Source of the DNA: an uncultured delta proteobacterium
GTDB lineage: Bacteria; Desulfobacterota; BSN033; UBA1163
DNA length: 64,000 bases
Direction: 5' to 3'
Assembly (NCBI GenBank): GCA_963827685.1
Contig: CAWHBU010000002.1
Location: forward strand, 1,024,001-1,088,000
In this document: piece after piece, positions 26,404 to 53,775 of the stretch
Layout: every line of letters starts with the position of its first letter
Numbering within the stretch: position 1 is the first letter of the stretch
Notes under the pieces: generated by a model
What the model was told of the DNA's origin: nothing
What the model saw: the letters and a program-made list of their open reading frames with translations, nothing else
The model's database searches: none
Made by a program: the position numbers and the translations under genes

Positions 26404-26408
26404 TTTAC

Positions 26409-37232: not shown

Positions 37233-37309
37233 GGCGGTGTAGCTCAGTCGGTCAGAGCATGCGGCTCATATCCGCAGTGTCCGGGGTTCAAATCCCTGCA
37301 CCGCCACCA
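37233..37309 (+). tRNA. tRNA-Met(CAT), elongator type
   Basis: Full cloverleaf GGCGGTG/CACCGCC, anticodon loop CTCATAT, GGTTCAAATCC, encoded CCA. Confidence 0.95.
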
Positions 37310-37318
37310 AATTTCTTT

Positions 37319-37647
37319 TTAGTCAAATCTCACGACCAAGAACCCCATCGCCTTATCGGATCTTGCATCGTTAAGATACCACTTGGCTAACGCACTCGTA
37401 TCAAAGTAGATGACTTCGTTCATTGCCGATCTCTATCCTCACGGATAACCTTTTCGCTCCCCTTCCGCATGACAGGCATTCTTCTTCGAAGATCTCAATA
37501 CGATGGAATGGGCCTCTTCTTCCCGATTTGTGTTAAACGAGCAATGGCCTCTCCCAGGCGAGTGATGGTAACCTTACCGTCAATTTCCAGCAAACGGTCA
37601 AGGTGTGATAAGGATTGACGCATTTCCTTTATAGTAAGCTTTTTCAC
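37319..37647 (-). pseudogene. Decayed Phd-type antitoxin plus truncated VapC PIN toxin
   Basis: Antitoxin MKKLTIKEMRQSLS..VTITR.GEAIA with internal TGA; coupled MNEVIYFDTSALAKWY ends after 34 aa beside the tRNA. Confidence 0.75.
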
Positions 37648-37890
37648 TCCTCAACGTCCTTCTTATTATTGATGAGTACCCCCCATCGGGAAAATGGAAC
37701 TTGAACTGTTAATGACTGGAAATTTAAATGCCTTGTAACCGTTTGTTTATACATTATTTATTGAGAACCGTTCCCAGACTCGGTCCTACAAATCAATAAA
37801 TACCTAAAAGGACCCTCTTTTTTGCATCAGACTTATTCCAAACCCCATTTTAGAAGCTCAAAGGGAATTTAAGGCGATCAAAAATTTTTC

Positions 37891-37919
37891 TTGACAATCC
37901 TTTTTAAACTTTCTATAAT
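37891..37919 (+). promoter_or_regulatory. Consensus sigma70 promoter
   Basis: TTGACA-17nt-TATAAT followed by TTCACCA direct repeats. Confidence 0.8.
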
Positions 37920-37963
37920 TCTTCACCAGATTTCACCATAATTAGTCACAACGGTGCACTAAT

Positions 37964-38173
37964 ATGGTAAACCAAAGATTGAGGCAACGGATTACCATAA
38001 GTCTTGATAAGGAGGCACTGGAAACCATCTCATCCATTGCTTCCGAAAATGACGTTTCAATAGCCCGTGTCATCCGATATGCGGTGGATAACTTGCTGAA
38101 AGAATGGAAAGAAGGCCGTCCAGATCAACTTCAACTTATTCTCCCTATGGGGAGAAAAAGGAGGTTGCAGTGA
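37964..38173 (+). CDS. Ribbon-helix-helix (CopG) protein
   Basis: RITISLD..L..IA..VSIA.VIR.AV. Confidence 0.8.
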   Translation: MVNQRLRQRITISLDKEALETISSIASENDVSIARVIRYAVDNLLKEWKEGRPDQLQLILPMGRKRRLQ

Positions 38174-38174
38174 C

Positions 38175-38783
38175 ATGACAAATTTAATGGGAGGTTTTGA
38201 GAGAAATGCTCTCACCATAGAAGTGGAGCAGAAAAAACAGGAGGTTCCCAAAAAAGAGCAGGTGACAGCAACAGACCAGAAACATCTTGAAATGGCATCT
38301 GAATGGTTAAGGAGGAAAACAAAGGGAAGCCGATTTTATCCCTCAAGCGGTTTGGGGAAACGTGAAATTTTCGCAAACAGGGAGGCGATAGCAAGGGATT
38401 GGCAACATCTTGAATTGGTATATGAATGGTTAAGGATCAGAGGAAAAATTATGCCATTGATTCTTAAACGACGAATTTGGTGGGAACCCGTTGCCGAAGC
38501 TGCCAGCTATGTGGTGTACGTAAGCAAAGATAGAACAATTTTTGAGCCTACTAAATTCTTGCGGGAGGCTACTCATGGGATGATCTCTAAGGAAGTCACT
38601 GGGAAAATAGAGTTGATCATCCCAGATGAGTGGCCTGAGTTCCCCATAGAACCGGGAAGTTACCATATCGGGATTACTGTTCGAGACTGCGTGGGGAATG
38701 AAAGTGATCCTTTCTTATTGGTGGGGCAATTCAAATTCTTTGCCCCCCTTGCACCAGCAAAGGGTGGGATCCAGACTCTTTAG
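38175..38783 (+). CDS. Hypothetical protein with C-terminal FN3/Ig-like region
   Basis: W.PV..A.SY.VY..Y.IGITV.D.VGNESD. Confidence 0.55.
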   Translation: MTNLMGGFERNALTIEVEQKKQEVPKKEQVTATDQKHLEMASEWLRRKTKGSRFYPSSGLGKREIFANREAIARDWQHLELVYEWLRIRGKIMPLILKRRIWWEPVAEAASYVVYVSKDRTIFEPTKFLREATHGMISKEVTGKIELIIPDEWPEFPIEPGSYHIGITVRDCVGNESDPFLLVGQFKFFAPLAPAKGGIQTL

Positions 38784-38944
38784 TTGAAATAATTCATCAC
38801 ACGGGTAATACAATTGTCGAAGAGCAAAGGCAGGGTCCAAAATGGCTCTGCCTTTTTTATTATTACGTATAGCTACCAGCAATCGTCAACATTCAGGATC
38901 ATGCGCGCCCCCTTTTACAATCTATCAGACCAATTGATAGAGAC

Positions 38945-39042
38945 CCCTAGTGGCCGATGTGAAGCTCTTGATCGAGCTTCCGGAGAGGAATATTAATTCA
39001 TATTGTGTCCCTTCCAGGACCACAGGCCGGCCAAATCCCTGC
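38945..39042 (+). repeat. tRNA-Met-derived repeat, copy A
   Basis: Degenerate tRNA segment, 71-nt insert (38961-39031), then CAAATCCCTGC. Confidence 0.85.
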
Positions 39043-39203
39043 CCCTCATCTCCTCATCTTCATTTTAATGGAAATGGCCAAATTTCTCTATGGATGACAC
39101 TAAATTTCAAAGCCAAAGGCTAACTCTTTATCTTTATTTTGGCTTGACAATCATTTGATTATTTATTAAGAATGTATTACATTAATAGCAAATCGAGGAT
39201 ATC

Positions 39204-39479
39204 TTGAAAATAGAAAAAATCTCGTGGGATCAGGAAACATTTGATCATATTTCTAATCACCTGGTTTCGCCGGAAGAGGTTGAAGAGGTATTGTTTAATG
39301 ATGTAGACACAGCACTTATGATGCGGGGAAAAGAAGGCAAATATCTTGCTTATGGAAAAACTCATGGGGGACGGCTGTTATTCATCGTGTGGGCCTTAAA
39401 ATATAAAAAGACAAAAATCATTACTGCCAGAGACATGACCGAAAAGGAAAAACGATTTTATAGAAGGAGGAAAGAATGA
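39204..39479 (+). CDS. brnT: BrnT family toxin
   Basis: ISWD..HI..H.V..EEVEEV, G.T..GR.LFIV, IITAR. Confidence 0.85.
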   Translation: MKIEKISWDQETFDHISNHLVSPEEVEEVLFNDVDTALMMRGKEGKYLAYGKTHGGRLLFIVWALKYKKTKIITARDMTEKEKRFYRRRKE

Positions 39480-39730
39480 AAGTGCCGAAATTTAAGAGTT
39501 TAAAGGAAGAAAGGGAATTTTGGGATACCCATAATTCAATGGATTATCACGATGACTTCAAGACAACCAAAAATGTGGTTTTTGTTCGACCCAAGAAAGA
39601 AGTCATTTCATTACGTCTGGAGCCTAAGTTCATAAGGAGGTTAAGAGAGCTTGCTGATAAAGAAGGCCTACCTCCTACTACCTATGCCAGGATGTTAATT
39701 GTTAAGAGTATTCAGGCCCGTACAAAATAA
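39476..39730 (+). CDS. BrnA/CopG family antitoxin
   Basis: P.FKS..EEREFWDTH, ISLRL; ATGA-coupled; TGTATTACA operator-like palindrome at 39173. Confidence 0.85.
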   Translation: MKVPKFKSLKEEREFWDTHNSMDYHDDFKTTKNVVFVRPKKEVISLRLEPKFIRRLRELADKEGLPPTTYARMLIVKSIQARTK

Positions 39731-39887
39731 ACTCGCTTATAAATCCAGAAACGCACAAAAATTTCCTCCGGTTTTGACAAAACTGCACTCCAGATAATAG
39801 AAATTTTAAAATTAAAGATATTATTAAAATTTGCATTTTTGTTGAGAATTCGGCAGTTACTCAGTTAAAAGTTGCAGATTTGGTCCT

Positions 39888-39902
39888 TGGCACATGTTAT
39901 GC
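39888..39902 (+). promoter_or_regulatory. sigma54 promoter
   Basis: TGGCAC-ATGTT-ATGC. Confidence 0.6.
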
Positions 39903-40009
39903 ACTAAAATCCTGAAAAACAAACCAACTTGGTGTCAAAATAGCGGCCTTAGTGGAAAAAGATATGCTACTCACTACTGCTCAGTGCGCACATGGAAAGG
40001 GGGAAACTA

Positions 40010-40519
40010 ATGAGAAAAACTAACGTGGGATCGGCGGTATTAATCGTGTTTCTTATGGCTATACTAACTGCAGGATGTGCCACAAGTGCTTACAAAGATG
40101 TTTATAAAGATGAAAATAGTCCTAATGTGAAAACCTTTAATGTATTGCCCGATGACTGCTATGTCGCAACGAAAAGGGCAGTATTAAGCCAAAATTTCAG
40201 GATTGAAAGAGAAGACTTGCAGGCAAGGTCATTTACAGCAGCAAGATATTTTGAGCATGGTAAAGATAGTACCGTTGTTACTGTCAATTCAAATGTCATC
40301 GCTGCAGGTAAAGACAAGTCCACCGTTTATGCCAGTGCTACCCAGCATGTAGAAAAAGTTAGAGTAAAAACTGACAGGACACTCCTTGGGATCGTCCCGG
40401 CTGGAAGTGAAGCTACGAAGGTGAAACAAGAGGAAAGGACAATTGAGGACAAGGATTTCTATAACAAACTTTTTGCAGCCATAGAAAAAGAGCTTAATAC
40501 TGTTGGAACAGGTAGATAA
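40010..40519 (+). CDS. DUF2242-like lipoprotein
   Basis: LTAGC lipobox; RAVLSQ, TI.D.DFY..LF. Confidence 0.7.
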   Translation: MRKTNVGSAVLIVFLMAILTAGCATSAYKDVYKDENSPNVKTFNVLPDDCYVATKRAVLSQNFRIEREDLQARSFTAARYFEHGKDSTVVTVNSNVIAAGKDKSTVYASATQHVEKVRVKTDRTLLGIVPAGSEATKVKQEERTIEDKDFYNKLFAAIEKELNTVGTGR

Positions 40520-40577
40520 AAAAAATAAGGCTGTTCAATATCAGGCAATGTTTCTTAGGATACTGGATTCGGGCAGG

Positions 40578-40730
40578 GCTTCCGGAGAGGAAGCGTCGTT
40601 TATATTGTGTCCCTTCCAGGGCCACAGGCCGGCCAAATCCCTGCACCACCACCAATTTTTTTTGTTTCCTGGTTTGTATGTATAACCCCCGCGACTAAAC
40701 TTCGGTTATTTTCCATCAGACACGTTCTTA
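40578..40730 (+). repeat. tRNA-Met-derived repeat, copy B (insert 5'-truncated)
   Basis: Insert, CAAATCCCTGCACCACCACCA, and a ~75-nt tail shared with copy C. Confidence 0.88.
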
Positions 40731-40903
40731 CTCACAAAAAAACATAATAATTCAAGATATAGCCCCCTTTGTCTACGTTATAACTGTATCAGAAAAAACT
40801 CCTCATTGAATTGTTGTTATTCCGTTGAGCTTGAAAAGGGCAAGCGTACACCTTAACTGGGTATCCACTTTTTTGTGGTAAAGATCAATCCCAGCACAGT
40901 GGC

Positions 40904-42064
40904 TCAAATATTTAATCCCCTTCCTTTCAGTAACTGACGTGCTATGAATAGCTTCTCTACTTCCTTAGTCCCCTCATAGATTTCTACAATTTTAGCATCC
41001 CTATAAAAACGACTGATATCGTACTCGGCTAAATATCCATATCCTCCATGCAACTGCAAGGCCTCGTTGACGACCTTTACCCCGACTTCGCCAGCATACC
41101 ATTTAGCCATGGAGATGAGGGCAGGTTCAAACTGACCTTTATCTAAACTCCATGCTGCTTTGTATACTAAATTCCTTGCAGCTTCTGTCAAGGTCGCCAT
41201 CTCAGCCAATTTACCCTGTACCATCTGAAAGGATGAGAGGGGTTGCCCGAATTGCTTACGTTTCTTCACATGCTTTAACGCCAACTCCAGGGCCCCCTGA
41301 GCAATCCCCACACCTTGGGCAGCAGTGCCAGGCCTTGAACGATTAAAAAATTCCATGATGCAATTAAATCCTTTTCCCTCCTCCCCGACGAGATTCTCCT
41401 CAGGGACCCATACGTCGCTAAAGCTTATCTCTGCTGTGTCATGTGCCCGGATTCCCAGCTTTCCCTTCAATTTATTCCTTTCCAAGCCGGGTCGATCGGC
41501 TTCGATAATAATCACACTGTGCCTCTCATTGGGTGAGGCCGCATCGGGGTTACTCAGACAAAGGGTCACCATCATATTCGCAATATCTCCATTGGATATA
41601 AACATCTTTGATCCATTGATAAGATATCCATTCCCTTTCTTATCGGCTTTGGTGGAGACGGATAAGACATCACTGCCAGCATCAGGCTCCGTCACCGCAA
41701 CCGCACTGATCAACTCTCCTTTACATATAGGGGGAAGGTATTTCCTCTTCTGTTCTTCTGATCCCTTAAGGAGTATCATTTCACTTCCGAAGCATGTACA
41801 CATAAGCTGCCCACCCAGACCCGGGTCAACTCTCCAAAACTCCTCCATAATGATGGCATTCTCTAAAAATCCGAACCCTCCTCCTCCGTATTTTTCATCT
41901 ATAAAAATTCCGATGAATCCCAGTTTTGAGGCTTTCCTTAATAGTTCAAGATTAAAAGTTTCCTCCAGATCACATTCCTTGGCGATATTTGGAAACTCTC
42001 CCTCTGCAAACTCCCTCGCCGCCTTTCTTATATCCCGTTGGGCCGGCGTTAAACTAAAGTCCAT
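40904..42064 (-). CDS. Acyl-CoA dehydrogenase
   Basis: TEPDAGSD, NGSKMFISN, R.QFG, LHGGYGY, IYEGT. Confidence 0.95.
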   Translation of the reverse strand: MDFSLTPAQRDIRKAAREFAEGEFPNIAKECDLEETFNLELLRKASKLGFIGIFIDEKYGGGGFGFLENAIIMEEFWRVDPGLGGQLMCTCFGSEMILLKGSEEQKRKYLPPICKGELISAVAVTEPDAGSDVLSVSTKADKKGNGYLINGSKMFISNGDIANMMVTLCLSNPDAASPNERHSVIIIEADRPGLERNKLKGKLGIRAHDTAEISFSDVWVPEENLVGEEGKGFNCIMEFFNRSRPGTAAQGVGIAQGALELALKHVKKRKQFGQPLSSFQMVQGKLAEMATLTEAARNLVYKAAWSLDKGQFEPALISMAKWYAGEVGVKVVNEALQLHGGYGYLAEYDISRFYRDAKIVEIYEGTKEVEKLFIARQLLKGRGLNI

Positions 42065-42115
42065 TTTTCCCTCCCATGAACCTCATGAAGATTATAAGAC
42101 ATTATCTCCGGCAGC

Positions 42116-43186
42116 CTATTTTTTAGTCCCTTCCCGATGGAGGTTCGCCTGACAAACTCTACAGTTTTTTCTTGTCGCGACATTGATGATCTTGCATCTT
42201 GGACATATGATTTCCAGCTTATCCCTGACCCATCGGGTAATGCCTTCGGGCATATAGAGAATCATCACGATAATAATGGCCGTAAAGAGAGCCATTCTTA
42301 TTTCAGGAACGATGACCAATAATTGCGTTGAAAGAAAGTAAAGCAGATAAGCCCCTATGACTGGACCGTAAATCGTCCCGGCCCCACCAAAGACCGTCCA
42401 TATTAATGGATAGATCGAAAAAATGAACTCCAGGGTTGTGGGACCTACCACCTTCATGGTGTGAGCATACAGCCCACCGGAAATTCCAGCAAAGAAACCG
42501 CTTAAGGCAAAGGCGAGTATTTTATATTTGACGGTGTTAATCCCCGTTGTCCGGGCTGAAATTTCATCTTCCCTGATAGCGCAGAAGATAATTCCAGTTC
42601 TAAGTATACGACTTTTTGTATCGGTCAGCTTCCACATAATGGCAACAGAAATCAACATAATCACGAGGCAAAAAAGATAAAGAAATATTGGGGAATCTGA
42701 AATACCCGGTAAGCCAAAGAGCCCCAATTCACCTCCAGTAAATTGAGGAAAAAGGAAGACAACTCCTTGCAGAATGACAGGCACAGCTAAGGTCACAATC
42801 GCGAGATAGGGGCCCCTTAGCCGAAGCGCAGGAATGGCTACAATGACCCCGATGATGACTCCGGCAATAGCACCCATCGGTATGGTCAACGAAACTGGCA
42901 AACCCACTTTTGAACTCAGGATCGCAGACGTATAAGCACTGACTCCGAAAAAAGCACCGTGGCCCAAGTTAAGTTGTCCGGAAAAAAATAATAGGTCCCA
43001 ACTGGCGGCTAAAAGAGCAAATATGGAAGAAAATACAAGTAGGTTCTTTAGATACGGACTGATGTTTAAAAAGCCCAGTAATAGAAGAAAAATAATTCCT
43101 ATGGACCCAATCGCCCTACCCGGGATCACCAATATTTCTTCTTCAAGTATTTTATAAAGACGCCAGAGATAATAGCGCATCTTCAC
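42116..43186 (-). CDS. HAAT ABC permease LivM-like with C-terminal zinc ribbon
   Basis: GQLNLGH, LRG.YLAI.T, AIREDE, CPRC..CRVC. Confidence 0.88.
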   Translation of the reverse strand: MKMRYYLWRLYKILEEEILVIPGRAIGSIGIIFLLLLGFLNISPYLKNLLVFSSIFALLAASWDLLFFSGQLNLGHGAFFGVSAYTSAILSSKVGLPVSLTIPMGAIAGVIIGVIVAIPALRLRGPYLAIVTLAVPVILQGVVFLFPQFTGGELGLFGLPGISDSPIFLYLFCLVIMLISVAIMWKLTDTKSRILRTGIIFCAIREDEISARTTGINTVKYKILAFALSGFFAGISGGLYAHTMKVVGPTTLEFIFSIYPLIWTVFGGAGTIYGPVIGAYLLYFLSTQLLVIVPEIRMALFTAIIIVMILYMPEGITRWVRDKLEIICPRCKIINVATRKNCRVCQANLHREGTKK

Positions 43187-44052
43187 AACCTTTCCTCTTC
43201 AAAGAACGCTCCAAACATTCCTTCGGGTTTTTTCGATAGCACAATCACCATCACCAACAAGGCAATCGCATTCTTGATGAAAGCTCCCATGGGGAGCCAG
43301 TTGACCACGGCCACTTCAGAAAACGCCAGGAGATAAGCTGCAATAAAACTTCCTTTCAGGCTACCCAACCCTCCTAGGACGACGATAGCCAATACCATGA
43401 TCATGGGATGTACCCACATCAAGGGCTCAACCACATAGATCGGGGAGACCAGAATGCTCGATATCGTTACAAACCCAATCCCTATACACATGGCGATCAG
43501 AGACAGCTTTTTTTCATTGATTCCCATGACATTGACTATTTCCCTGTCTTGAGAGGTTGCCCGAATGGCTATCCCCACTCTGGATCTTGACAAGAAGAGC
43601 CACAAACTAAGAATGAGAGCGATGCTCACACCGAATGCGAGAAAGTGCTGATTTAAAACCCTAACCTCTAAGAGTTCTTGATATCCTGAAATGAAAGGGG
43701 GAACCCGACGAAAATCCGTCCCAAAGATAGAAATGATGCATTCTTCAAAGAAGAAAGCTGAAGCGATGCTGATGAGAATCACCACTGTCTCATGGGAACG
43801 GATGGGTTCAAGAACAAATTTGTAGGTCGCCACCCCTATGAAGGAGGCGACCCCAATGGCGAGGATCGCTGAAATAAAGATGTTGAGGTGAACGAGGGAG
43901 CAAAAGACATAGAAAAAGTAGGCCGCTAACATATAAAAAGAGGTGTAGGCCAAATTGACGATTCTCGCCGCCCCCCAGATAAGAGAGAAGCCGAGAGCCA
44001 AAACGGCATAAACCGTTCCAAGAACAATTGAAATGATCAGAACCTGGATCAT
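43183..44052 (-). CDS. HAAT ABC permease LivH-like
   Basis: ALGFSLIWG, G.AIRA.SQD, LGGLGS. Confidence 0.88.
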   Translation of the reverse strand: MIQVLIISIVLGTVYAVLALGFSLIWGAARIVNLAYTSFYMLAAYFFYVFCSLVHLNIFISAILAIGVASFIGVATYKFVLEPIRSHETVVILISIASAFFFEECIISIFGTDFRRVPPFISGYQELLEVRVLNQHFLAFGVSIALILSLWLFLSRSRVGIAIRATSQDREIVNVMGINEKKLSLIAMCIGIGFVTISSILVSPIYVVEPLMWVHPMIMVLAIVVLGGLGSLKGSFIAAYLLAFSEVAVVNWLPMGAFIKNAIALLVMVIVLSKKPEGMFGAFFEEERL

Positions 44053-44113
44053 CTATTTTCCTTTCAACCCCTCCCTCTCTCCCTTACGGGCAGAGGGAGG
44101 GATGTAAGGAGTC

Positions 44114-45406
44114 TCATTTCTTTTTCTTCCAATAGTCTACTACCCATGGTGGCAATAAATACTTTTCAGACCCTTCATACTTCACGCCCTGCCACTCGTA
44201 GGGCCAGACAACCACAACCTTTCCCGGACCGCGCCATTGATTGACCACCCAGGTGTTATATCCGGGACCGAATCTCAGATCATGAGGAAATTGGTGATCT
44301 CGAGGATAAAAGACCATCCTGCCGTAAGCTCCTTTATAATCTGTCTTTTCAAGCTCGGTGACCACTTTGTCGGAGTCGATGGTGCCTGCCCGCTCAATCG
44401 CTTCTTTCAATACATAGACCGCATCGTAGGTGACACTTACATAACCGGGAAAATCATCAAATGCCTTCAGATAGGCATTCCAAAAGGGCATCGTCTTTTC
44501 GCTCAACTTTGCAGGACCGATACCGATCATCGTCGAACTGTAATTACCATACCCACCTGTCGCGTCCCAGAAGGTTTTCACACAGGCAATGGCAGCTCCT
44601 CCAACCAAAGCAGCCGGAATTTTAAGCTCACCCCATTGCTTCCCAAGAACAGATCCCATCGTGCCGGAGACTGATTGGAAGATAATCTGAGCTCCGCTCG
44701 CCTTGATCGCCGAAAGTTCAGCCGTCACATCGCTGGCTGTTGCAGAAGGTCTCCAAGCTCCGACCACTTCGAGGCCCATTCCTGGGGCCTTCGTTTCGAC
44801 CGCCTTTACAATCGGATCGGCCCACATAAGTTTATCAGCCAAGATGGCCACCTTCGGCTTTGCAATCCCTATCTGTTCTTTTACGATCTTGGCAACATCC
44901 TCCAGATGAGCGAAAAGGACTTGCCCCTGGGCAATAGAGTTGATGGTCATTCTAAAAGTATATTTGTACTTGTCATAATCCTTTGCAACCCGAGCCAAGA
45001 GATCCGGATGAACGGCACCGCATAGAACGAAGATTTTCTTGTACTTCATCGCCACATCCTGCATGGCAAGCGCTGATTCTGACCTCTGTGTGCCGATGAA
45101 AAAATGAACTTCATCCGCCGCTCTTTCCACTGCGACGACCGCATCGGAAACACTGGCGATCTCGTTTGTATCCACCCTGATGAGCTTGATTGGCACCTTG
45201 GCGCCTCCCAAAGTCACCCCGCCGGCTTTATTGATCTCTTCCTGTGCTATGGAAGCTCCCCGCCAATGATCCCGTCCAAACACAGCTTTCATAGGCCCTG
45301 CAACTCCAATCCTGACCTCTTTGACAGCTTGCTGTGCCAGCCCCCCGCCTGCCAAAAAAGAAAGCAAACACAGACTCACCACACCTACGATCATTCCCTT
45401 TCTCAT
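44114..45406 (-). CDS. HAAT ABC substrate-binding protein
   Basis: Signal peptide, IN.AGG, YDAVY, LEKTDY.G. Confidence 0.88.
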   Translation of the reverse strand: MRKGMIVGVVSLCLLSFLAGGGLAQQAVKEVRIGVAGPMKAVFGRDHWRGASIAQEEINKAGGVTLGGAKVPIKLIRVDTNEIASVSDAVVAVERAADEVHFFIGTQRSESALAMQDVAMKYKKIFVLCGAVHPDLLARVAKDYDKYKYTFRMTINSIAQGQVLFAHLEDVAKIVKEQIGIAKPKVAILADKLMWADPIVKAVETKAPGMGLEVVGAWRPSATASDVTAELSAIKASGAQIIFQSVSGTMGSVLGKQWGELKIPAALVGGAAIACVKTFWDATGGYGNYSSTMIGIGPAKLSEKTMPFWNAYLKAFDDFPGYVSVTYDAVYVLKEAIERAGTIDSDKVVTELEKTDYKGAYGRMVFYPRDHQFPHDLRFGPGYNTWVVNQWRGPGKVVVVWPYEWQGVKYEGSEKYLLPPWVVDYWKKKK

Positions 45407-45546
45407 CGTAAAGCCCTCCTTTCCTTCAAAGTTTTCTTACTCACAGAATAGCCCCATTTTAAAGATGATTGACCCCTCCCTTCTCCTCAACCTTCAGGCC
45501 GGAGGAGATCGCACTGTATTTTTGTGGCTCCTCGGCGCCATCCGAG

Positions 45547-46302
45547 CTATAAACCCAGGTAGGTCTTCCTGATCCGCTCATCGTCTTGTAGTGCTTCAGA
45601 TGTTCCTTCGAAGACGACCTTCCCTTGGGAAAGCACGTAATTTCTTTGAGCTAAAGCAAGTGCAAGACTCACATCCTGTTCCACTAAAATGATCGTCACC
45701 CCAGTCTGATAAACATCCTTAATACGCTTAAATACTTCATCTTTTATCATAGGGGCGAGCCCAAGAGAGGGTTCGTCGATCAATAGAAGCTTGGGCTCGG
45801 ACATCAATGCCCTTCCGATAGCCAGCATGGTTCGCTCTCCCCCGGAGAGGGTACCGGACATTTGTCTTTTTCTCTCTTCTAATATTGGAAAGAGTTTGAA
45901 AACTGCTTCTAATCTTTGCCTTATTTTTTCTCTTTCTTTAATCAAAAAAGCCCCCGTTATTAAATTATCAAAGACGGTCAATTCCCGAAATGGCCTTCCC
46001 CCTTCTGGACAGAGAATTAACCCTTTTTCTGCTCTCTGATGAGCTGGCACGGAATTGATCGGCTCCCCTTCAAAGACGATCTCGCCTTCGATAATAATAT
46101 TAGAGACTTCTTTCCTCATTCCCCTCTTCATCTCTCTTTCCCAGCTCATCAGTCCGCATATGGTTCGAAGAAGAGTCGTTTTTCCAGCACCGTTTGGGCC
46201 TACAATACTGAGGAGCTCCCCTGTATGAACCCCTAAACTTACCCCATCTAATACCACCGCAGTATCATAGGCAACGGTGACATTCTTTGCCTCAAGGAGC
46301 AT
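45547..46302 (-). CDS. HAAT ABC ATPase LivF-like
   Basis: GPNGAGKT, LSGGE, DEPSLGLAP, VEQ. Confidence 0.92.
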   Translation of the reverse strand: MLLEAKNVTVAYDTAVVLDGVSLGVHTGELLSIVGPNGAGKTTLLRTICGLMSWEREMKRGMRKEVSNIIIEGEIVFEGEPINSVPAHQRAEKGLILCPEGGRPFRELTVFDNLITGAFLIKEREKIRQRLEAVFKLFPILEERKRQMSGTLSGGERTMLAIGRALMSEPKLLLIDEPSLGLAPMIKDEVFKRIKDVYQTGVTIILVEQDVSLALALAQRNYVLSQGKVVFEGTSEALQDDERIRKTYLGL

Positions 46303-47071
46303 TTCTATCTCCTCTTGATCGGTGCCCTATATAAATTTCAATGACCTTTGGGTTGTGTACGATTTCCTGAGGCGTGTCTTCGGCAATCAGTTCACCGTAG
46401 TTTAGCACAATCACGCGGTCGACTATTTTCATCAGCTCCGATAACTTGTGTTCCACGATCAACATCGCCGGGCCTTCGCTATGTAATCGACCAAACCTCC
46501 CGCCCTTGTGCAACCTTTTTAGGGACTTCGCCATCAGATCCGTTTCATAGGGGTTCAAACCCCCGAATGGTTCATCGAGTATGAGCAACTCGGGTTCAGT
46601 AGCAAGGGCCCGTGCAATTTCAAGGCGCGTAAGATCTCCGTGAGAGAGAATGGAAGCTTTTTCCTTGGCCAGATCTGAAATTCCACAAAACTCCAGCGCA
46701 TCCATTGCCATACTTTCTACTCTTTTTACCCATTCCCCTCCCTTTCTTCCTGAGCCAAGGCACCCGATCATCGCATTGGCAATAATAGGCAACTCCCGAA
46801 ATGGCCTTACGACCTGATGGGTCATGGCTATCCCTTTTTTTACGATATCCCAGGGTGGATGGCCTATAATCTCCTCGCCATTGAACCGAATTGTCCCAGA
46901 ATCAGCTTTTAACATGCCTATGATAAGGCGCACCAAAGTCGTTTTTCCCGAACCATTTGGACCAATCAGCCCTACCATTTCATTTCTTCCCATGCTAAAG
47001 TTAAGTTTTTTGACTGCCATCAGGCCACCAAAAGACTTCGTTAAGTTCTCAATCTCGAGAAAAGATGCCAT
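46292..47071 (-). CDS. HAAT ABC ATPase LivG-like
   Basis: FGGL.A, GPNGSGKT, LDEP, VEH. Confidence 0.92.
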   Translation of the reverse strand: MASFLEIENLTKSFGGLMAVKKLNFSMGRNEMVGLIGPNGSGKTTLVRLIIGMLKADSGTIRFNGEEIIGHPPWDIVKKGIAMTHQVVRPFRELPIIANAMIGCLGSGRKGGEWVKRVESMAMDALEFCGISDLAKEKASILSHGDLTRLEIARALATEPELLILDEPFGGLNPYETDLMAKSLKRLHKGGRFGRLHSEGPAMLIVEHKLSELMKIVDRVIVLNYGELIAEDTPQEIVHNPKVIEIYIGHRSRGDRNAP

Positions 47072-47072
47072 T

Positions 47073-48830
47073 TTAGCCTTCCCTCTCCTCCCTTAACTCC
47101 CTTCGCGATACTTTTCCGACATCCGTCCTCGGGATCTCTCCTCGAAACTCTATAATCTTCGGAACCTTGTAATGAGCCAATTTTTCTTGGCAGTGACTGA
47201 CAATTTCCTCTTCCGACATTTTCCCTCTTGCATCAGCCTCTAATACGATCACCGCTTTAATGTTTGCACCGACCTTCGGGTCAGGAACCCCTATGACCGC
47301 AGCTTCCTTTATCTTAGGATGGGTTTTTAGAACCTCTTCTATTTCTCGGGCAAAGATGGAATACCCCTTGTATTTGATCAAATCTCTTTTTCTATCGTAG
47401 AAATGAACATAACCCTCATTATCCATTCGGACTAAGTCACCTGTCATAAGCCACTTTTCTCCCGCGATTTCCAGAAAAATTTTTCCTGTTTCTTCCGGCC
47501 TGTTCCAATAACCCTTCATCACCTGGGGACCCCTTACCACCAGTTCACCTATTTCTCCGAGCGGAACCATTTCTGCCGTGTCAGGATGGACAATGGCTAC
47601 CACCGTGTTAGGCAATGGAACTCCGAAGGAACCCATCTTAGGCCTTCCAACCGGGCTAACGCAGATTCCTGAAGAGGTCTCGGTTTGCCCATAACCTTCG
47701 TGGATAAAAGTACCTGTCCGCCTCTCCCAAATCTTAGCTGTATCTTCAAGAAGCGAGTCAGCACCAGAAACGAGGAACTTGAGTCGTTTCCAGTCCACTC
47801 TACCCGTCCTGTCATAATCTTTAAGAAGTTCGAATAAACCCGGTACACCCATAAAAAATGTTGCGTCATATCCTCCGACACTGCTTAAAACGTCATCGAT
47901 GTCAGGGGTGGTTAATATGACGAGTGTATATCCTCGAACAATACCACTGATTAAAAGTACCACCTGGCCGTAGATATGGTAAAAGGGCAAAAAGGCGATC
48001 ACAGTCTCTTTTCCTTCTTCGAGATTCTTCCCCTTTTCAAAGCTGTAGGAATAGAAAGTTTGGTTGATGGCTTGCATCGCAAAAATATTAAAATGAGTTA
48101 GCATCGCACCCTTTGGAGGGCCTGTCGTCCCACCCGTATAGGGGAGTGCAGCTAAGTCTTCCTTTGGATTAATCTCGATCTTTGGTGGATTCGGTTGACT
48201 TTTTTTAATCAAATCCTGAAACCAGTGAATATTCTTACCCTCTTGAATCTTAATCTTTGGAACCTCCATTTTTTGGTATACAGCTTTCAAAATGCTTTTT
48301 CCAAAAACCTTCTTTAGGCTTGGTAAGTACTCATCGATACTTGTTAAAATAATTCTTTTTAATCCCACGTTCGTTTTCTCAACAAAGTGATGGAGTATAT
48401 CCAGGCAAATGATCGTTTCGGCGTGGCTGTCTTCAAGCTGGTGTTTCACCTCCGGGGTAACATAGACCGGACTGATGGGTGTCAGGATAGCTCCTATTCT
48501 AAGAGCTCCGAAATAGGCTATAACGAATTGGGGACAGTTCAATAGAAACAAGGCTACGGTATCTCCTTTTCTGATTCCCAAATCATAGAGACCCGTGGCA
48601 AATCTATCAACTTGATCCTTTAATTCCAAATAGCTTATTTTTTTGCCATAAAAGATTAAGGCGGGTTTATTTTTCCATTTCTCTACCGCTCTATCAAAAG
48701 CTTGAATTAACGAGATGTTGGGGATGTCGATTTCGTGAGGGAGCCCCTCAGGATAAAATTTAAGCCAAGGTTTATTGAGATATAAATTTTCCCTCTCCTT
48801 TTCCGTTCCAACCTTACTTTCCATAAACAA
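47073..48830 (-). CDS. Acyl-CoA ligase (long-chain FadD-like)
   Basis: YTGGTTGPPKG, EGYGQTE, TGD, YKVP, GK. Confidence 0.93.
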   Translation of the reverse strand: MFMESKVGTEKERENLYLNKPWLKFYPEGLPHEIDIPNISLIQAFDRAVEKWKNKPALIFYGKKISYLELKDQVDRFATGLYDLGIRKGDTVALFLLNCPQFVIAYFGALRIGAILTPISPVYVTPEVKHQLEDSHAETIICLDILHHFVEKTNVGLKRIILTSIDEYLPSLKKVFGKSILKAVYQKMEVPKIKIQEGKNIHWFQDLIKKSQPNPPKIEINPKEDLAALPYTGGTTGPPKGAMLTHFNIFAMQAINQTFYSYSFEKGKNLEEGKETVIAFLPFYHIYGQVVLLISGIVRGYTLVILTTPDIDDVLSSVGGYDATFFMGVPGLFELLKDYDRTGRVDWKRLKFLVSGADSLLEDTAKIWERRTGTFIHEGYGQTETSSGICVSPVGRPKMGSFGVPLPNTVVAIVHPDTAEMVPLGEIGELVVRGPQVMKGYWNRPEETGKIFLEIAGEKWLMTGDLVRMDNEGYVHFYDRKRDLIKYKGYSIFAREIEEVLKTHPKIKEAAVIGVPDPKVGANIKAVIVLEADARGKMSEEEIVSHCQEKLAHYKVPKIIEFRGEIPRTDVGKVSRRELREEREG

Positions 48831-48857
48831 TCCCCTTTCGCGGAATTAGAAGTTTGT

Positions 48858-50348
48858 TTAGATTTTTGGCGGAAACTCCGGCAACTGGCTGTATAGTCCA
48901 TCCTCTGTCCCATCCTTAATCCTTGCTGCTCGCTTCGCGGCTGCTCTATATTTTTCAAAGTCAGCCAGCGCATAGATGGAAAGCCTCTGTGCGGCCAGGG
49001 ATCCTTCGGCATGAAGCGTCAGAACATCTTCATAGGAAGAAGTGAGTTCTCTGATTAGCTTAATTAGCCGGAGTCTATATTCTGTCGGTATGCCTGCCTT
49101 CCCTCCAAGGTACTTATCGATGAGGTCGTGAATCTCAGGATTGAGGTAATCTTTCGAAGAAGGGGCTGTGGCGACAATGCCTCCGGCGATATCCTGAAGA
49201 TACTTCGTCGCCTGATGCCAGTTATCCGCGAAGAAAAGCTTTGCAATATTTGCGTACATAGGATTTGGATAAACCAACTTTGAATCATGTTCAGAAACAC
49301 AGTGTTCGCAAGCCGCCCTGCCCATCACTTCGGTTGCCTCCGCATAGAGAACGAGCCAAGCCAGCTTATCCTGGATATGTGAGACTTTCTCAACGCCATT
49401 ATATTCGGCCATCAATGCGGCAGCGCCAGCAACCAGCTCAAGTTCCACGGCCTTATAGGTCTCAGCACTAAGGCGGTGAAAATTGCCAAACATGTAGGCG
49501 ATGTCACCGGCAAATGGCCACTCGCCTTTCATAAAGACCCGCTCATTGGGGATAAAGACGTCATCAAAGATAACCATGGCATCGTTCAGATAGATACTCG
49601 CGGTAATGGGATTATCGAAAAAATTGCCCGATTCTTTGATCTCGGGTTCAGCAGAGATCAGGGTAAGACCTTTTGCATTGGCCTGCACGGCAAACGAAAC
49701 AGCATAGGCCTTATCATCTTCACGCATTGCCCGACATGGCAAGATGATGATCTCGTTGGCCAGCGGCGCCTCACTGATATGCGCTTTGGCCCCTCGGACG
49801 ACTATGCCATCCTTACGCTCCTCCACAATCCTTACGTAGTAGTCTTGGTGGGGTTGCTGCTTTGAGGGACGCAGACTTCTATCTCCTTTGACATCGGTCA
49901 TCCCCAAAGCAATGGAGGCATCGGTTTTAAGAAGGTACTTTCGATAGGCCTCCACTCGCCCGGCATAATTTGTCCCATGTTCCTTATCGATGCGTTGGGT
50001 GACCACCGTGACAGCATTCAGTCCGTCTTTGCCGACAAATTTAGCTCCGGACGGCTTTCCATAGCAAACCCTTGCCCAGAGCTTAACGATTTCCCTCAAC
50101 CTCAGCAGGTCCTCAACACTCGTTTGCGGCATAAAGACAAAACTGCCTAACTCCCCCTCTTCCGTCTTCTCGGTGACAAGGCGCTGGTAGCGTGGATCCT
50201 GCTGCAGCACATAATCCATCGCCATCCAGTCTATACAAATCCTCAAGATTGGGTGCTGCGTCACATCCTTCACCCTCTCCCCCAGACAATAGACCGCTCG
50301 ACCATCCTTCAGACTTTCTACATATTGTTGCGGTGTTCTAATAGCCAT
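48858..50348 (-). CDS. 4-hydroxybutyryl-CoA dehydratase/HpaB family flavoprotein, atypical
   Basis: TDVKGDRSLRP, GAKAHI, FDDVFIP.ERVF, H..GS; Fe-S Cys positions altered. Confidence 0.85.
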   Translation of the reverse strand: MAIRTPQQYVESLKDGRAVYCLGERVKDVTQHPILRICIDWMAMDYVLQQDPRYQRLVTEKTEEGELGSFVFMPQTSVEDLLRLREIVKLWARVCYGKPSGAKFVGKDGLNAVTVVTQRIDKEHGTNYAGRVEAYRKYLLKTDASIALGMTDVKGDRSLRPSKQQPHQDYYVRIVEERKDGIVVRGAKAHISEAPLANEIIILPCRAMREDDKAYAVSFAVQANAKGLTLISAEPEIKESGNFFDNPITASIYLNDAMVIFDDVFIPNERVFMKGEWPFAGDIAYMFGNFHRLSAETYKAVELELVAGAAALMAEYNGVEKVSHIQDKLAWLVLYAEATEVMGRAACEHCVSEHDSKLVYPNPMYANIAKLFFADNWHQATKYLQDIAGGIVATAPSSKDYLNPEIHDLIDKYLGGKAGIPTEYRLRLIKLIRELTSSYEDVLTLHAEGSLAAQRLSIYALADFEKYRAAAKRAARIKDGTEDGLYSQLPEFPPKI

Positions 50349-50433
50349 CCAAGTCCCTTTCGTATTCGGCCATGCCGAGTTAACATTTCCCGATTCAGTG
50401 GGCCACTGTCCCTACCGTCCCTTTGCGACCTTC

Positions 50434-51885
50434 TTACCGGCCAATATACTTTAGCGCATTCTCCCCAGCAATGCGCCCCGAGTTGAGTGCAAAACCGCTG
50501 CTAGCCCCGGACGCGATGACGTCATAGCTATCACCGTACAAGCCGCCCGCGTCATTGCCAACGGCATACAGGCCAGGTATCACCTTGTCGTTCCTGTCGA
50601 GGACTTCCGTCTTCTCATTGATCTTGATGCCGCCAAGCGTGCCCAGAAAGTTCATATAGCACTTGAAGGCATAGAACCTGGGGGTCTTGACCGGACGGAG
50701 ATACTCTGGATCTTTCGCAAACTGATCGTCGTGTCCTTTTTCACAGAACCTGTTGTACTCTTCTACGGTCTTTTTGAAAATAGCGCAGTCAATGCGCATT
50801 TTGTTCGCCAGTTCATCGAGGGTGTCGGCCACAAATATGAAGGGGCTCTTTTTCTCGACAGCAGCCTTAATCTTAGTATCCAGGTCCGTCAGAGGTGTTC
50901 TCGGCGGCACATACATGCCGACACCGATACCCCCGTTTTCTGCCAACTGGATCTTTGTTTCCTCATCGAATATCCTGAAGACATAGCCTCCCTTCTGCTT
51001 CGACATGGCGTTCCCGGCATAAGCGATGTTCTCGACGATCGTCTCGTCACAGAACCGGACTCCATCCTGGTTCACCCAGAGCGTGGGCTGACCCACGGCT
51101 CCCCAGATATGGCTGCGGGCTCCGATTTTGGGCGGCGAGCCGATGTTAAGGTGGATAACGCCGACCCCCTCCTCTGCAGCTCCCGCTTCCCAGGCCATCT
51201 GGATGCCCTCACCCGTTTTGTTGTATCTGCCTAAAGGGAAAAGGTTTACCTCAAGGTCGAAGCCCGAGTATTTCTTGATCCACTCCTTGTTGTTTGGGTA
51301 GCCGCCCGTGGCGATGATGACCACTTTAGCCTGCACCTTGATCTGTTTACCCGTTTTATCCTCGACAACAGCCCCCGTGACTGGTCCGTTTCCTTCACGC
51401 AGGAGATGCTTAACGGTAGTCTCGTACCGAACTTCGACGCCTTTCTTGACCGCATTGGCCACAAGGACGTTGATCGCGACTCCGCCCAACCCCTTGAACA
51501 GGTGCCATGTCCTGGGGCCTCCCAACAATACCCCTCTTGGCTCGGTGAATTCAACGCCCTGCTTCTCCAACCAGTCAATGGTGCTGGCTGATTTATCGAC
51601 GAAGGCCCGTACAAGAGCAGCATTAGCCTTCCAGTGACTGTATTCCATGATACCCCTAAAGGCTTCATCCCGCGTCACCTTGATGTTTGTCTTCCGTTGC
51701 ATATCGCTATCGGCTGCAAAGGTACCTTCCACGAATAGGAAGCTGCCTCCTGCAAACGGCATCTTCTCAAAGATAACAACCTTGGCTCCGCCCACAGCAA
51801 GGGTCAGGGCGGCTGCAAGACCCGAACCCCCGGCGCCCGCGACGATCACATCCTTCGTTTCTGGGAACAAATCCCGATTTTTCAT
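50434..51885 (-). CDS. FAD-dependent oxidoreductase (flavocytochrome c/FAD_binding_2 family)
   Basis: GAGGSG, ATGG, G.RF.DE, TLGGI.IN, GLYA.G. Confidence 0.9.
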   Translation of the reverse strand: MKNRDLFPETKDVIVAGAGGSGLAAALTLAVGGAKVVIFEKMPFAGGSFLFVEGTFAADSDMQRKTNIKVTRDEAFRGIMEYSHWKANAALVRAFVDKSASTIDWLEKQGVEFTEPRGVLLGGPRTWHLFKGLGGVAINVLVANAVKKGVEVRYETTVKHLLREGNGPVTGAVVEDKTGKQIKVQAKVVIIATGGYPNNKEWIKKYSGFDLEVNLFPLGRYNKTGEGIQMAWEAGAAEEGVGVIHLNIGSPPKIGARSHIWGAVGQPTLWVNQDGVRFCDETIVENIAYAGNAMSKQKGGYVFRIFDEETKIQLAENGGIGVGMYVPPRTPLTDLDTKIKAAVEKKSPFIFVADTLDELANKMRIDCAIFKKTVEEYNRFCEKGHDDQFAKDPEYLRPVKTPRFYAFKCYMNFLGTLGGIKINEKTEVLDRNDKVIPGLYAVGNDAGGLYGDSYDVIASGASSGFALNSGRIAGENALKYIGR

Positions 51886-52062
51886 TTTACCCTTTTTCTA
51901 CTCTCCATTTCTTGGTTCATTTTAGACCCCTTGTTGTCATACACACCCCCATCTCTCTAATGGCGATCGTCCTGTCCTTATACCCGCAATGATGCCTACT
52001 GCGCACTAGCACCGCCATCCAGAATCACACCCGGCCATGCCGAGCAGATATTTCCCGGATAG

Positions 52063-52731
52063 TCACTCCATGACGCCCAATCCTCTTAAGATAAAGTCAA
52101 CTGACGAATCGACATTCTTCCTTGTCGGTCTATCCCTCAAGGTCCAACCCCTCAAAGACAGAAAGACCACGAGGTAAGCAATCAAACTTGCCAAAAAATC
52201 TAAATCACCTTTAACTGATTTTGGTTTCTTTATCTCCCTCAATAAGGTGCGCCAGAAGCCAATCACATTGTTGTAATCCATTTCCAGAACGATCCGTAAG
52301 TGCTTCTTGTCCAGATACTTGCTTTCTGTATAAATAAATTGGATTAGTTTTCTATTTTCAATGATAAATTGTAAGTTACAATGGAGAGCCTTAATCAACT
52401 TTTGCAGGGGATCTTCGATTTGTTCCAAGTTAGACTTTTTTAAGTATTCGTACCAGACCTTCTGCATGTGTCTATGTACCAAATACAACACGTCATCTTT
52501 CGAAGAGATATAATGATAGAGCTGCCCCATGGACATGCCGCAAGATTTTGCTATCTCGCGGATAGTCGTCGGATGGTATCCCTTTCTGAAAAATGTTCTA
52601 CAGGCCCCGTCCACGATTTGCCGATGCTTACTTTCAACCAGTGGAACATTCTTAGTAGAAACCCTAATCAGATGATTCGGAAAAACCTCACTCTGATTTG
52701 CAGTAGTTGATTCCTTCTTAGTGCTCGTCAT
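52063..52731 (-). CDS. TetR family regulator
   Basis: F..KGY..TTIREIA..GMS.G.LY.Y..SK. Confidence 0.92.
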   Translation of the reverse strand: MTSTKKESTTANQSEVFPNHLIRVSTKNVPLVESKHRQIVDGACRTFFRKGYHPTTIREIAKSCGMSMGQLYHYISSKDDVLYLVHRHMQKVWYEYLKKSNLEQIEDPLQKLIKALHCNLQFIIENRKLIQFIYTESKYLDKKHLRIVLEMDYNNVIGFWRTLLREIKKPKSVKGDLDFLASLIAYLVVFLSLRGWTLRDRPTRKNVDSSVDFILRGLGVME

Positions 52732-52762
52732 GGTCCCCTAAATGCGTCGCAAAATAAATATA

Positions 52763-52810
52763 GAGCAAGCGCTCGATTTACCTTCTATCTAAAACAAAAT
52801 ATTTTGTCAA
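52763..52810 (-). promoter_or_regulatory. tetR promoter and candidate operator
   Basis: TTGACA-17nt-TAGAAG; GAGC-N4-GCTC palindrome downstream. Confidence 0.5.
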
Positions 52811-53070
52811 GTATTTTCTTACCGCGACTACAAAAAATTTGGAAAGGCTATATTTCCATATAGTTATATGCCGAAAGGAGAGGTCAGTCTGACATTGTCC
52901 TGCCAAGGCAAGTTTCTCGTTTCAATGAAGAGAGGGGGATGAATCACCTAAAATTTTTTTATGTAGACGCCGCCTGATAATATCCGATTTGTCCCAGGTA
53001 AAAATGTCCGCTTGGGCCTAAGGGCAGAGAACTCTTCGTTGAGATAAGGAAGTCTCAAAGCGGGTTCAAA

Positions 53071-53260
53071 CTCATATCCGCAGTGTCCGGGGTGAAGCTC
53101 TTGATCGAGCTTCCGGAGAGGAAGCGTCGTTTATATTGTGTCCCTTCCAGGACCACAGGCCAGCCAAATCCCTGCACCGCTACCAAATTTCTTTTTTCCT
53201 GGTTTGTATGTAAAACCCCTGCCCCTAAACTTCGGGCGATTTTCATCCGAGACGTTCTTA
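53071..53260 (+). repeat. tRNA-Met-derived repeat, copy C (attR-like)
   Basis: 23 nt identical to tRNA 37265-37287, 71-nt insert, CAAATCCCTGCACCGCTACCA-AATTTCTTTTT, tail shared with copy B. Confidence 0.92.
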
Positions 53261-53775
53261 TGGCCCCTTTCCTTTCTTCTTTTCATAAGCACTTGCAACT
53301 ACTTTTATCCCGTTGAGATATGGCACTATTGACAAGCCCAAGGAACCACTGGCTCGCCTTTGCTCCCATGAGCATGAGTACCTCCAAATCAATGGATCTA
53401 TAAACGCCTGAATGACGATTCCCCCCTTGAAACACGCTCCGCTAAGGGAACCCCCCATCAGATACGTGAGTGCCTTCGTTTATCTCTGCCTCCTCCCGTA
53501 AAGGAAGGGGCACTCGCGTTCTCTCTTCGCGCCCTTCCCCCTATCAGCGTCTTTATCTCTTTGAATTTGTCCAACACCACCTTGCTCCCTCTGCTTCAAT
53601 CAGGGCTAAAATTCTGATCTCACCTTACCTTTACTTCTCCCTTACCTCTTATCCAAACTCACCATTGACAGCTCCCCTACAAGCATGTACAGTACTTCCT
53701 GAAGTAAATTTTGAGAGCTTGGTACAAAAGGTGTAGACTTCAACTAGAAATCGTTTTGGAAGGGAGACGACCCAC

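Follow-up and report, generated by a model that had tools for sequence, protein, structure and literature searches.

Tandem island arrays at tRNA genes are already well known, and Williams reportedly sorted integration within tRNA genes into sublocation classes. In Xer-dependent IMEX and pdif modules, cargo that often consists of toxin-antitoxin (TA) pairs is bounded by short sites and is moved by a host recombinase acting in trans. We analyzed a 64,000-nucleotide stretch of DNA (the window) from an uncultured deltaproteobacterium (GenBank assembly GCA_963827685.1, contig CAWHBU010000002.1, positions 1,024,001 to 1,088,000), in which the 3' part of a tRNA-Met gene recurs between unrelated blocks of cargo genes, its T loop interrupted by a 71-nt insert. 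The insert is homologous to a dispersed, hairpin-rich repeat with about 60 copies in the genome, and the locus is a tRNA-Met integration hotspot, of which the region described here is the proximal part. We consider it probable, with some reserve, that the region is a decayed and reshuffled tandem island array whose displaced tRNA halves carry an insertion of the dispersed repeat. Among the published accounts consulted, the closest counterpart lies in Dehalococcoides, where tandem islands downstream of ssrA are bounded by direct repeats of the 3' end of that gene, some islands without integration modules are discussed as cis-mobilizable, and an integrase gene overlaps attL (PMC3146451).

The genome under study (G000) consists of 14 contigs (C1, C2, etc.; the window is C2:1024001-1088000), with an estimated contamination of 7.98%. 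Relatives are designated G003 to G019, and retrieved loci and metagenome contigs carry L numbers; positions without a contig prefix are those of the window. The tRNA-Met(CAT) gene (37233..37309, plus strand; ARAGORN and Rfam) is intact and contains no insert. It is the only one of its sequence type among the three CAT-anticodon tRNAs found (of 49 tRNAs) and is therefore probably indispensable, with the assembly only 94.5% complete. A block of identity that starts at the anticodon loop and continues 11 nt beyond the CCA end (37265..37320, plus strand), located with a repeat finder and by direct reading, is common to the displaced copies and represents the attL-side core.

Three displaced copies, A, B, and C, lie on the plus strand of the window. 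Copy C (53062..53196) consists of a 9-nt remnant of a left arm, a piece from the anticodon loop to the T stem that is identical to the tRNA gene (53071-53093 and 37265-37287; 23/23), 71 nt (53094-53164) in place of a single T of the tRNA (37288), and the 3' part of the T loop through the CCA end and 11 nt beyond (53165-53196 against 37289-37320; 97% identity). Copy A (38949..39045) is a degenerate tRNA 3' half that is 89% identical to copy C over 97 nt; the whole insert is present (approximately 38961-39031), and the tRNA-like flanks are more degenerate. In copy B (40573..40665), the insert is truncated at its 5' side within the first hairpin and is followed by the 3' part of the T loop and the 3' strand of the acceptor stem; the similarity to copy C begins within that hairpin and amounts to 88% over 153 nt (40578-40730). 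Copies B and C share about 73 nt more beyond the tRNA end (82%). The flank after copy B, F1 (40658..40756, plus strand), comprises the same roughly 100 nt that follow the genuine tRNA in G009 and further copies in G003, L074, and L107, and its counterpart after copy C, F1' (53188..53260, plus strand), is 82% identical to F1 and shorter than the L074 allele. The three same-orientation repeats, the replacement of one T-loop T by 71 nt in A and C, the truncation in B, and the extent of copy C had all been described in a sequence-only reading of the window, and each was recovered here by the repeat finder or by direct reading. A BLASTN search of the genome with copy C, which that reading had also proposed, returned copy B (E = 1.7e-49), copy A (E = 1.3e-29), and a fourth copy, D (E = 1.3e-26); with such values the displaced copies are not chance similarities. 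Copy D is located outside the window on the minus strand (C2:1124297-1124408), approximately 36 kb past the window end and 47 kb beyond copy C. It shares the left-junction class of copy A, and this, together with its inverted orientation, hints at an inversion or a second array end.

Weak BLAST matches of copy C to a 40-nt piece elsewhere in G000 led to the dispersed family. Dispersed copies are 105 to 160 nt long (e.g., C2:1111147-1111302 and C2:1120835-1120947) and have the same skeleton as the insert, in which a GAAGCU/GCUUC stem and CCGG precede a conserved AU-rich stretch with UUGUG at its end, and a second stem and CCGGYCAA come after it; extra GC-rich hairpins are nested in the stem-loops of the dispersed copies. 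A loose regular expression gave 40 matches in G000, about 35 of which are true copies of the element, and an nhmmer profile built from 28 dispersed copies, independently of the tRNA-linked inserts, gave 73 matches at E <= 1e-3, 58 of them full length at E < 1e-15. The reverse comparison used a covariance model, R1, for which 60 tRNA-linked inserts were the sole input, 49 of them distinct metagenome copies and 11 from genomes; six duplicates and two copies at contig ends were left out. In G000 this model ranked the four tRNA-linked copies first (C at E = 7.6e-25, A at 8.3e-24, B at 5.0e-16, and D within this range). Behind them came 44 dispersed copies at E < 0.01, of which 25 lie below 1e-5, and the match to each covers model positions 1 to 75. 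Because a model of tRNA-linked inserts alone matches these dispersed copies end to end, the insert is a minimal member of the dispersed family, and the "modified tRNA-like site" of the sequence-only reading is better described as a tRNA half that received a short member of an intergenic repeat.

By a crude map of open reading frames (ORFs) of at least 120 amino acids, 54 of the 58 full-length copies are intergenic, and their orientation relative to the downstream ORF is the same in 26 cases and opposite in 32. Dozens of copies are present in each of five congeners, and the repeat also occurs on at least 113 contigs of metagenome-assembled genomes (MAGs) titled Thermodesulfobacteriota, Deltaproteobacteria, Syntrophaceae, or Syntrophorhabdus. 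Rfam returned nothing at E <= 1 for three dispersed copies and no insert match at the gathering score in the window copies. A role as a 5' untranslated region or riboswitch was considered, as several copies lie just upstream of start codons, and was rejected since orientation is random overall. G000 contains 21 near-identical IS200-type Y1 transposase genes (18 in 163-amino-acid and 3 in 144-amino-acid frames; e.g., C2:1100268-1100630), and IS200 was rejected as parent because the ends of the 21 copies are unrelated to those of the repeat. No TnpB was found in G000. Four divergent Y1 transposase genes (169 to 333 amino acids), which might be of the types associated with repetitive extragenic palindromic (REP) sequences, are not adjacent to repeat copies; thus, among the IS200, TnpB, and Y1 candidates, no element with a transposase shares the ends of the repeat. 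Two repeat loci were compared with congeners, and the small repeats occupying each of them differ from genome to genome; one intergenic spot close to the position orthologous to C3:799636 holds a different small hairpin repeat in each congener (L273 in G005, L269 in G012, L274 in G010, and L268 in G004). Such intergenic spots act as repeat sinks.

At its ends the repeat reads GAAGCT and CCGGYCAA, and neither terminal inverted repeats nor a target duplication was seen in the copies. The ends could be located in 45 dispersed copies, 13 of the 58 having been left out. Of these 45, 41 have T at position -1, 30 have G at position -2, and 43 finish in YCA(A/G) on the 3' side. In the tRNA-linked copies, the same end positions are occupied by the tRNA's own G53-T54 and C56-A58, again with no duplication. 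These end statistics lead us to read GT and YCAA as bases that belong to the target of the dispersed repeat, and the universal T-loop sequence would therefore be a natural target.

Of the 55 family genomes, 8, belonging to three genera, have the insert-bearing half, and it was found on 57 metagenome contigs as well. No tRNA 5' half lies upstream of it in any of these 57 contigs, nor upstream of the 15 copies or pieces with an insert that were seen in genomes, and all genuine tRNA-Met genes seen are without the insert (G000, G009, G010, G012, G013, G014, G019, L108, L114, L125, and L129). A conserved, A/T-rich arm with repeated GGTA-type motifs, about 140 to 160 nt long, abuts the anticodon-loop end in at least 17 contigs, and the sequences diverge beyond this arm; copy C retains 9 nt of this arm. 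On the right side of the copies, conservation ends a few bases past the CCA. Judged from its order, the composite of arm, core, and resident sequence has the layout expected of an attR site. ORFs that begin opposite the CAT anticodon, on its complement, were considered as a candidate gene and rejected, being only 3 to 38 amino acids long where complete. The repeat pattern was unmatched in viral contigs, and copy C was unmatched in plasmids and phages.

The side to which the insert belongs can be read from pairs of related contigs. L093 shares the insert and right flank with L098, L101, and L129, as do L120 and L130 with L090, and in both sets the left sides differ from the anticodon loop outward. 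Among 17 contigs, the divergence of the approximately 145-nt left arm is uncorrelated with that of the insert (Mantel r = -0.014, permutation p = 0.51). The same right-hand modules also follow either the genuine tRNA or an insert-bearing copy. These three observations place the insert on the resident (target) side for arm-bearing elements and suggest that crossover is frequent in or close to the anticodon loop. Since it mostly travels with the right flank, as in these clearest comparisons, and its divergence is uncorrelated with that of the left arm, the insert-bearing half behaves like a remnant of the target side and not like a site borne by a cassette.

The locus is occupied differently in relatives. 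An upstream M1/M28 peptidase gene is syntenic in G004, G009, G010, and G012, and the downstream side is different in each. In G009, the tRNA is directly followed by the roughly 100-nt flank seen after copies B and C in G000. A gene 1.5 kb after the tRNA in G009 matches C2:1107955-1108791 of G000, 46.6 kb after the tRNA, and the variable zone is therefore larger than the span from the tRNA to copy C to which that reading was confined. Direct repeats of the tRNA 3' part at distal borders (A, B, and C) and presence/absence polymorphism between conserved flanks are thus both found. An integrase gene adjoining the tRNA is absent in G000 and present in three relatives: in G004 the gene for a 398-amino-acid tyrosine integrase ends 15 nt from the syntenic tRNA-Met, and in G013 and G014 the gene for a different integrase, of 393 amino acids, runs through the tRNA 3' half and reaches the anticodon. 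In the latter two (L062 13478-14659 and L066, respectively), the last 14 or so codons of the integrase gene are the complement of the tRNA-Met 3' half, and the stop codon overlaps the complement of the anticodon. The earlier proposal that the repeats are displaced 3' fragments at a site used by tRNA-targeting integrases gains support from these neighbors. In G004, a displaced half without insert is followed by a start like that of the first cargo module of G000 and then by an insert-bearing copy, which is the expected product of a new integration into a G000-like array.

An integrase that tracks the repeat, which had been suggested as a further check, did not emerge. Genes of the G004 type (E <= 1e-40) are present in 5 of the 55 family genomes, and of the 8 copy-bearing genomes only G004 (100%) and G010 (35%) have one; the G013-type integrase was searched for in G000 and the retrieved loci. 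The absence of an integrase from the window, as read earlier from the letters, held in scans with PF00589 (tyrosine integrase) and PF00239 (serine recombinase): the former has 19 matches in the genome, the nearest at C2:714331, and the latter has no match anywhere in G000. Two adjacent tyrosine recombinase genes (394 and 297 amino acids) occur in three identical loci of the genome (C1:55906-57265, C2:701576-702935, and C4:735416-736775) that look like a multirecombinase mobile element.

The copies delimit three modules in the window, module 1 (37321..38948), module 2 (39046..40577, plus strand), and module 3 (40904..52731, minus strand), and whole modules are reordered between near-identical strains that have no linked recombinase. 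The order in G003 is module 2, x, module 1. In contig L094, which is 95% identical to G000 in module 1, the end of module 3 comes first; a C-like copy and a TA module follow, and then module 1 with an A-like copy behind it. In G010, a segment that opens with an insert-bearing copy is duplicated. That cargo between the repeats might vary had been raised in the sequence-only reading, which took an identical order in relatives as evidence against itself; the orders found in G003, L094, and G010 differ. The ORFs within 1.5 kb of metagenome copies are likewise very diverse (85 on the right and 84 on the left), with few recurring clusters, and Phage_integrase is absent from the 25 families listed on either side.

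Five small islets were annotated, namely, three that extend from the tRNA to a copy (L108, L114, and L129), one in G019, and the two-copy unit of L094. In these, 7 of 10 scanned ORFs match TA-type families, the smallest islets carrying HicA/HicB (L108), PIN plus Phd (L114), an AbiEii-like protein (L129), PIN (G019), and Phd (L094). Modules 1 and 2 of the window fit this pattern, and small TA modules are as expected of survivors of decay. The truncated copies B, G010_a, G010_b, G010_d, G010_e, and G003_b end at scattered points, which argues for decay rather than a fixed crossover site. Logan contigs assembled from public runs support the path from the tRNA through module 1 and copy A to module 2 and include G009- and L074-like alleles. 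Among the joints in these contigs, 40580>53115, 53102>40596, and 53251>40724 lie within the B/C repeat or reflect the fuller F1 flank as in L074, and a joint from 40756 to 53313 (36 nt between, 30-nt side) resembles the G009 allele.

The decayed island array that we favor could have arisen as follows. Tyrosine integrases targeting tRNA-Met would recombine at or near the anticodon loop, so that an incoming element completes the gene with a 3' half of its own and displaces the previous half outward, where it becomes the distal repeat. The dispersed repeat may have inserted once into the T loop of such a displaced, nonessential half. The insert-bearing half would then have stayed as the resident distal repeat while elements on its left were exchanged, and it could have been multiplied and shuffled by recombination between copies (integrase or RecA mediated, over 100 to 190 nt of shared sequence), together with segments imported from other strains. 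The integrases would since have been lost in G000, leaving the TA pairs and one self-regulated catabolic and transport cluster.

Several observations weigh against this account. Simple serial integration into an insert-free tRNA displaces insert-free halves, as in G004, and not three or four insert-bearing ones, so that extra steps must be assumed, i.e., recombination between copies, imported segments, or elements with the insert in their own att. The last of these is suggested for some elements by L085, where the 3' end of a G004-type integrase gene lies about 100 nt beyond an insert-bearing copy. The "module 1" junction class (copies A and D, G003_c, and L094) keeps the insert with a single left side next to four different right flanks, and exchange therefore also occurs 3' of the insert. 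About 30 kb more of variable DNA lies to the right of copy C with no bounding copy, and no circle or clean deletion was seen in the assembled contigs of the public runs. The 71-nt short form of the repeat was seen in the tRNA context only, and the long form never inside a tRNA half. Finally, hairpin 3 of the insert shows compensatory changes (see below), which are not obviously expected of a dead insertion.

The cargo itself is as described in the sequence-only reading, which distinguished three unrelated blocks (a vapBC remnant with a ribbon-helix-helix [RHH] gene, brnTA with a lipoprotein gene, and a 12-kb catabolic cluster). Module 1 contains an internally deleted vapC (PIN) remnant read directly from the sequence, on the minus strand and abutting the tRNA end, where L114 has an intact PIN gene at the same position; an RHH protein (37964-38173; Pfam); and a 202-amino-acid protein without a known family in the Pfam scan (38175-38783). 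Two direct repeats of 79 nt (38235-38313 and 38358-38436; 71% identical, 123 nt apart) lie inside the ORF for the latter, and a relative that is 74% identical is found at L060 10521-10862. Module 2 encodes, by Pfam, a BrnT toxin (39204-39479), a CopG-type antitoxin (39476-39730), and a DUF2242 protein (39992-40519). Module 3, the 12-kb cluster, is by Pfam a 12-gene minus-strand unit with five genes for a branched-chain (LIV)-type ABC transporter (two permeases, a periplasmic binding protein, and two ABC ATPases) as well as genes for an acyl-CoA dehydrogenase, an AMP-dependent ligase, an HpaB-like enzyme, an FAD-binding protein, and its own TetR regulator. Farther along the window, a stretch of about 350 nt (55851-56240) also occurs in the tRNA-Met arrays of G010 (L050 12237-12581) and G004 (L052 and L064) and in L074 and may be another shared module or repeat. 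Elsewhere, a 3-kb stretch (26001-29000) has a G+C content of approximately 30%, against 41 to 54% in the remainder, and may be another foreign insert, and a c-di-GMP-I-GGC riboswitch aptamer lies at 62989-63063 on the minus strand (Rfam RF03167, 70.8 bits).

A less conservative account gives the insert a consequence. If a repeat that targets the T-loop-like GT|YCAA landed in a displaced half, any precise excision of the islands that separate this half from the tRNA, by crossover at the anticodon loop, would rebuild the single-copy tRNA-Met with a broken T loop, and the insert would act as an excision lock. The hotspot would then be a one-way trap that gains cargo but cannot cleanly lose it, and the trap would explain why the half is kept, spread, and structurally conserved across lineages. 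Were clean excision blocked in this manner, the insert would provide a simple route to fixing mobile DNA and accumulating cargo at a hotspot. We regard this excision lock as unlikely. In a bolder variant, the folded insert itself would be recognized by a recombinase acting in trans.

Alternatively, the insert and the dispersed family could be transcribed as a functional structured RNA. The tRNA-linked form would then be a small RNA derived from the tRNA, or it would mark island borders as a signal for processing or termination. One argument for this idea is hairpin 3, in which, in a 60-row alignment, double-sided changes affect 5 of 8 pairs and number 30 cells against 11.4 +/- 2.6 in shuffled alignments (0 of 500 shuffles as high), with slid controls far lower. 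A conserved core with variable-length peripheral hairpins in the loops of hairpins 1 and 3 of dispersed copies, a near-invariant G-U pair in candidate hairpin 2 (53 of 55 distinct rows), and the absence of the family from Rfam point the same way, as does slightly better folding of the plus (tRNA-sense) strand, which is favored in 38 of 59 copies, against 21 for the minus strand, with a mean difference of -1.06 kcal/mol in what is a weak comparison. On the other hand, no covariation is seen in hairpin 1, which is 98% paired, nor any double change in the weak hairpin 2, where pairing holds in 73.6% of cells; the minimum free energy z-score of copy C is only -1.45, and the dispersed copies are randomly oriented relative to neighboring genes. 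Template switching in quasi-palindromes can mimic compensated DNA hairpins without any RNA function, which also counts against the idea. The hairpin is kept, but whether as RNA, as single-stranded DNA, or by templated quasi-palindrome correction cannot be told from these changes, and we rate a structured RNA as rather improbable.

A cassette system, to which the sequence-only reading likened the array, would make the unit of tRNA half and hairpin, with its left arm of about 150 nt, a dedicated site on each cassette that is used by a recombinase encoded elsewhere, in the manner of attC. Such a system would account for a discrete unit of about 275 nt with sharp borders and very diverse cargo on 57 metagenome contigs, for the lack of integrase enrichment among the ORFs on either side, for a hairpin kept by compensatory change, and for small units with single TA pairs, as in chromosomal integrons. 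It would also account for the permuted module order between close strains, which recombination between the 100- to 190-nt repeats fits equally well. In conflict with it, the insert has homologues at about 58 unrelated intergenic places, the left arm and insert are not coinherited, and the insert travels with the resident right flank in the two clear cases described above. The modules are 0.7 to 12.5 kb long and of mixed orientation, and one has its own regulator; the truncated copies indicate no single crossover site; and the only integrase family tested for co-occurrence is found in just two of the eight copy-bearing genomes. We therefore consider a cassette system improbable, a step below the RNA. 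Of the earlier proposal of serial capture by a recombinase in trans, repeated integration at a tRNA site, variation and reordering of the cargo, and the lack of a linked recombinase in G000 survive; the dedicated cassette site does not.

The insert might instead be an intron or a tolerated expansion of a functional tRNA-Met that the displaced halves mirror. Its exact position in the T loop, flanked in copy C and most metagenome copies by both strands of an intact T stem, would suit that view, but the missing 5' halves, the insert-free state of every genuine tRNA-Met seen, and the same element at about 58 non-tRNA sites exclude it as far as these data go, and we give it next to no chance. Misjoins or duplicated contig ends, which the contig number and estimated contamination of this MAG might have led one to suspect and which had been named earlier as a possible refutation, are the least credible explanation of all, because the copies differ from each other by 11 to 30% and have distinct flanks and because the junctions recur in eight genomes and in independent assemblies, including L074 (TetR, copy C, and flank), L094 (block 1 with an A-like copy), and a 2,089-nt contig of public run X1 that spans 37281-39367.

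A literature search turned up neither this repeat nor an att half interrupted by a repeat, although supplementary repeat-family tables of genome papers, which were outside that search, might list the repeat. Three features are not described in the sources searched: a displaced tRNA half interrupted exactly in the T loop by a dispersed repeat, a composite kept across three genera and 57 contigs; a repeat family of Syntrophaceae-like Thermodesulfobacteriota, with about 60 copies per genome and no entry in Rfam, whose ends mimic the T loop; and the reordering of whole modules in near-identical strains described above.

The array resembles integron arrays, with their IntI, attI, and attC components, in its serial unrelated cargo, TA cargo, hairpin-forming border repeat, and lack of a recombinase in the units. 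It differs in that neither IntI nor attI was found beside it, in that its border repeat is a tRNA fragment plus a dispersed repeat rather than attC, and in that its units, instead of being mostly single, promoterless ORFs of one orientation, each with an attC (whose core motifs were not formally searched), reach 12.5 kb and are multigenic, include opposite-strand genes and a regulator, and have a linkage pattern that puts the repeat on the resident side. As miniature inverted-repeat transposable elements, REP and bacterial interspersed mosaic elements, and IS200/IS605 palindrome elements are generally characterized, the dispersed family is like them in being of high copy number, intergenic, orientation neutral, and rich in hairpins, with other GC-rich hairpins nested in its loops. 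Unlike them, it has no terminal inverted repeat or target duplication that could be seen, its ends are unrelated to those of IS200 and no TnpB accompanies it, its apparent target GT|YCAA matches the tRNA T loop, and one of its lineages has become fixed in a tRNA half. With Xer-dependent modules, the array has in common cargo modules, often TA pairs, between short sites, and a recombinase in trans; no dif-like site was recognized in the copies, which were inspected by eye only, and the sites here are tRNA derived and in direct orientation. The Dehalococcoides ssrA islands (PMC3146451) come closest in having an essential small-RNA gene as the anchor, tandem islands ended by direct repeats of its 3' part, islands without integration genes, an integrase that overlaps att in some relatives (as in the G013 type), and strain-specific content. 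In contrast to those islands, the array in G000 has no linked integrase, and its repeats extend from the anticodon loop to the 3' end and have the T loop interrupted by a 71-nt member of a dispersed repeat, in a half that is widespread (57 contigs) and has been multiplied within arrays.

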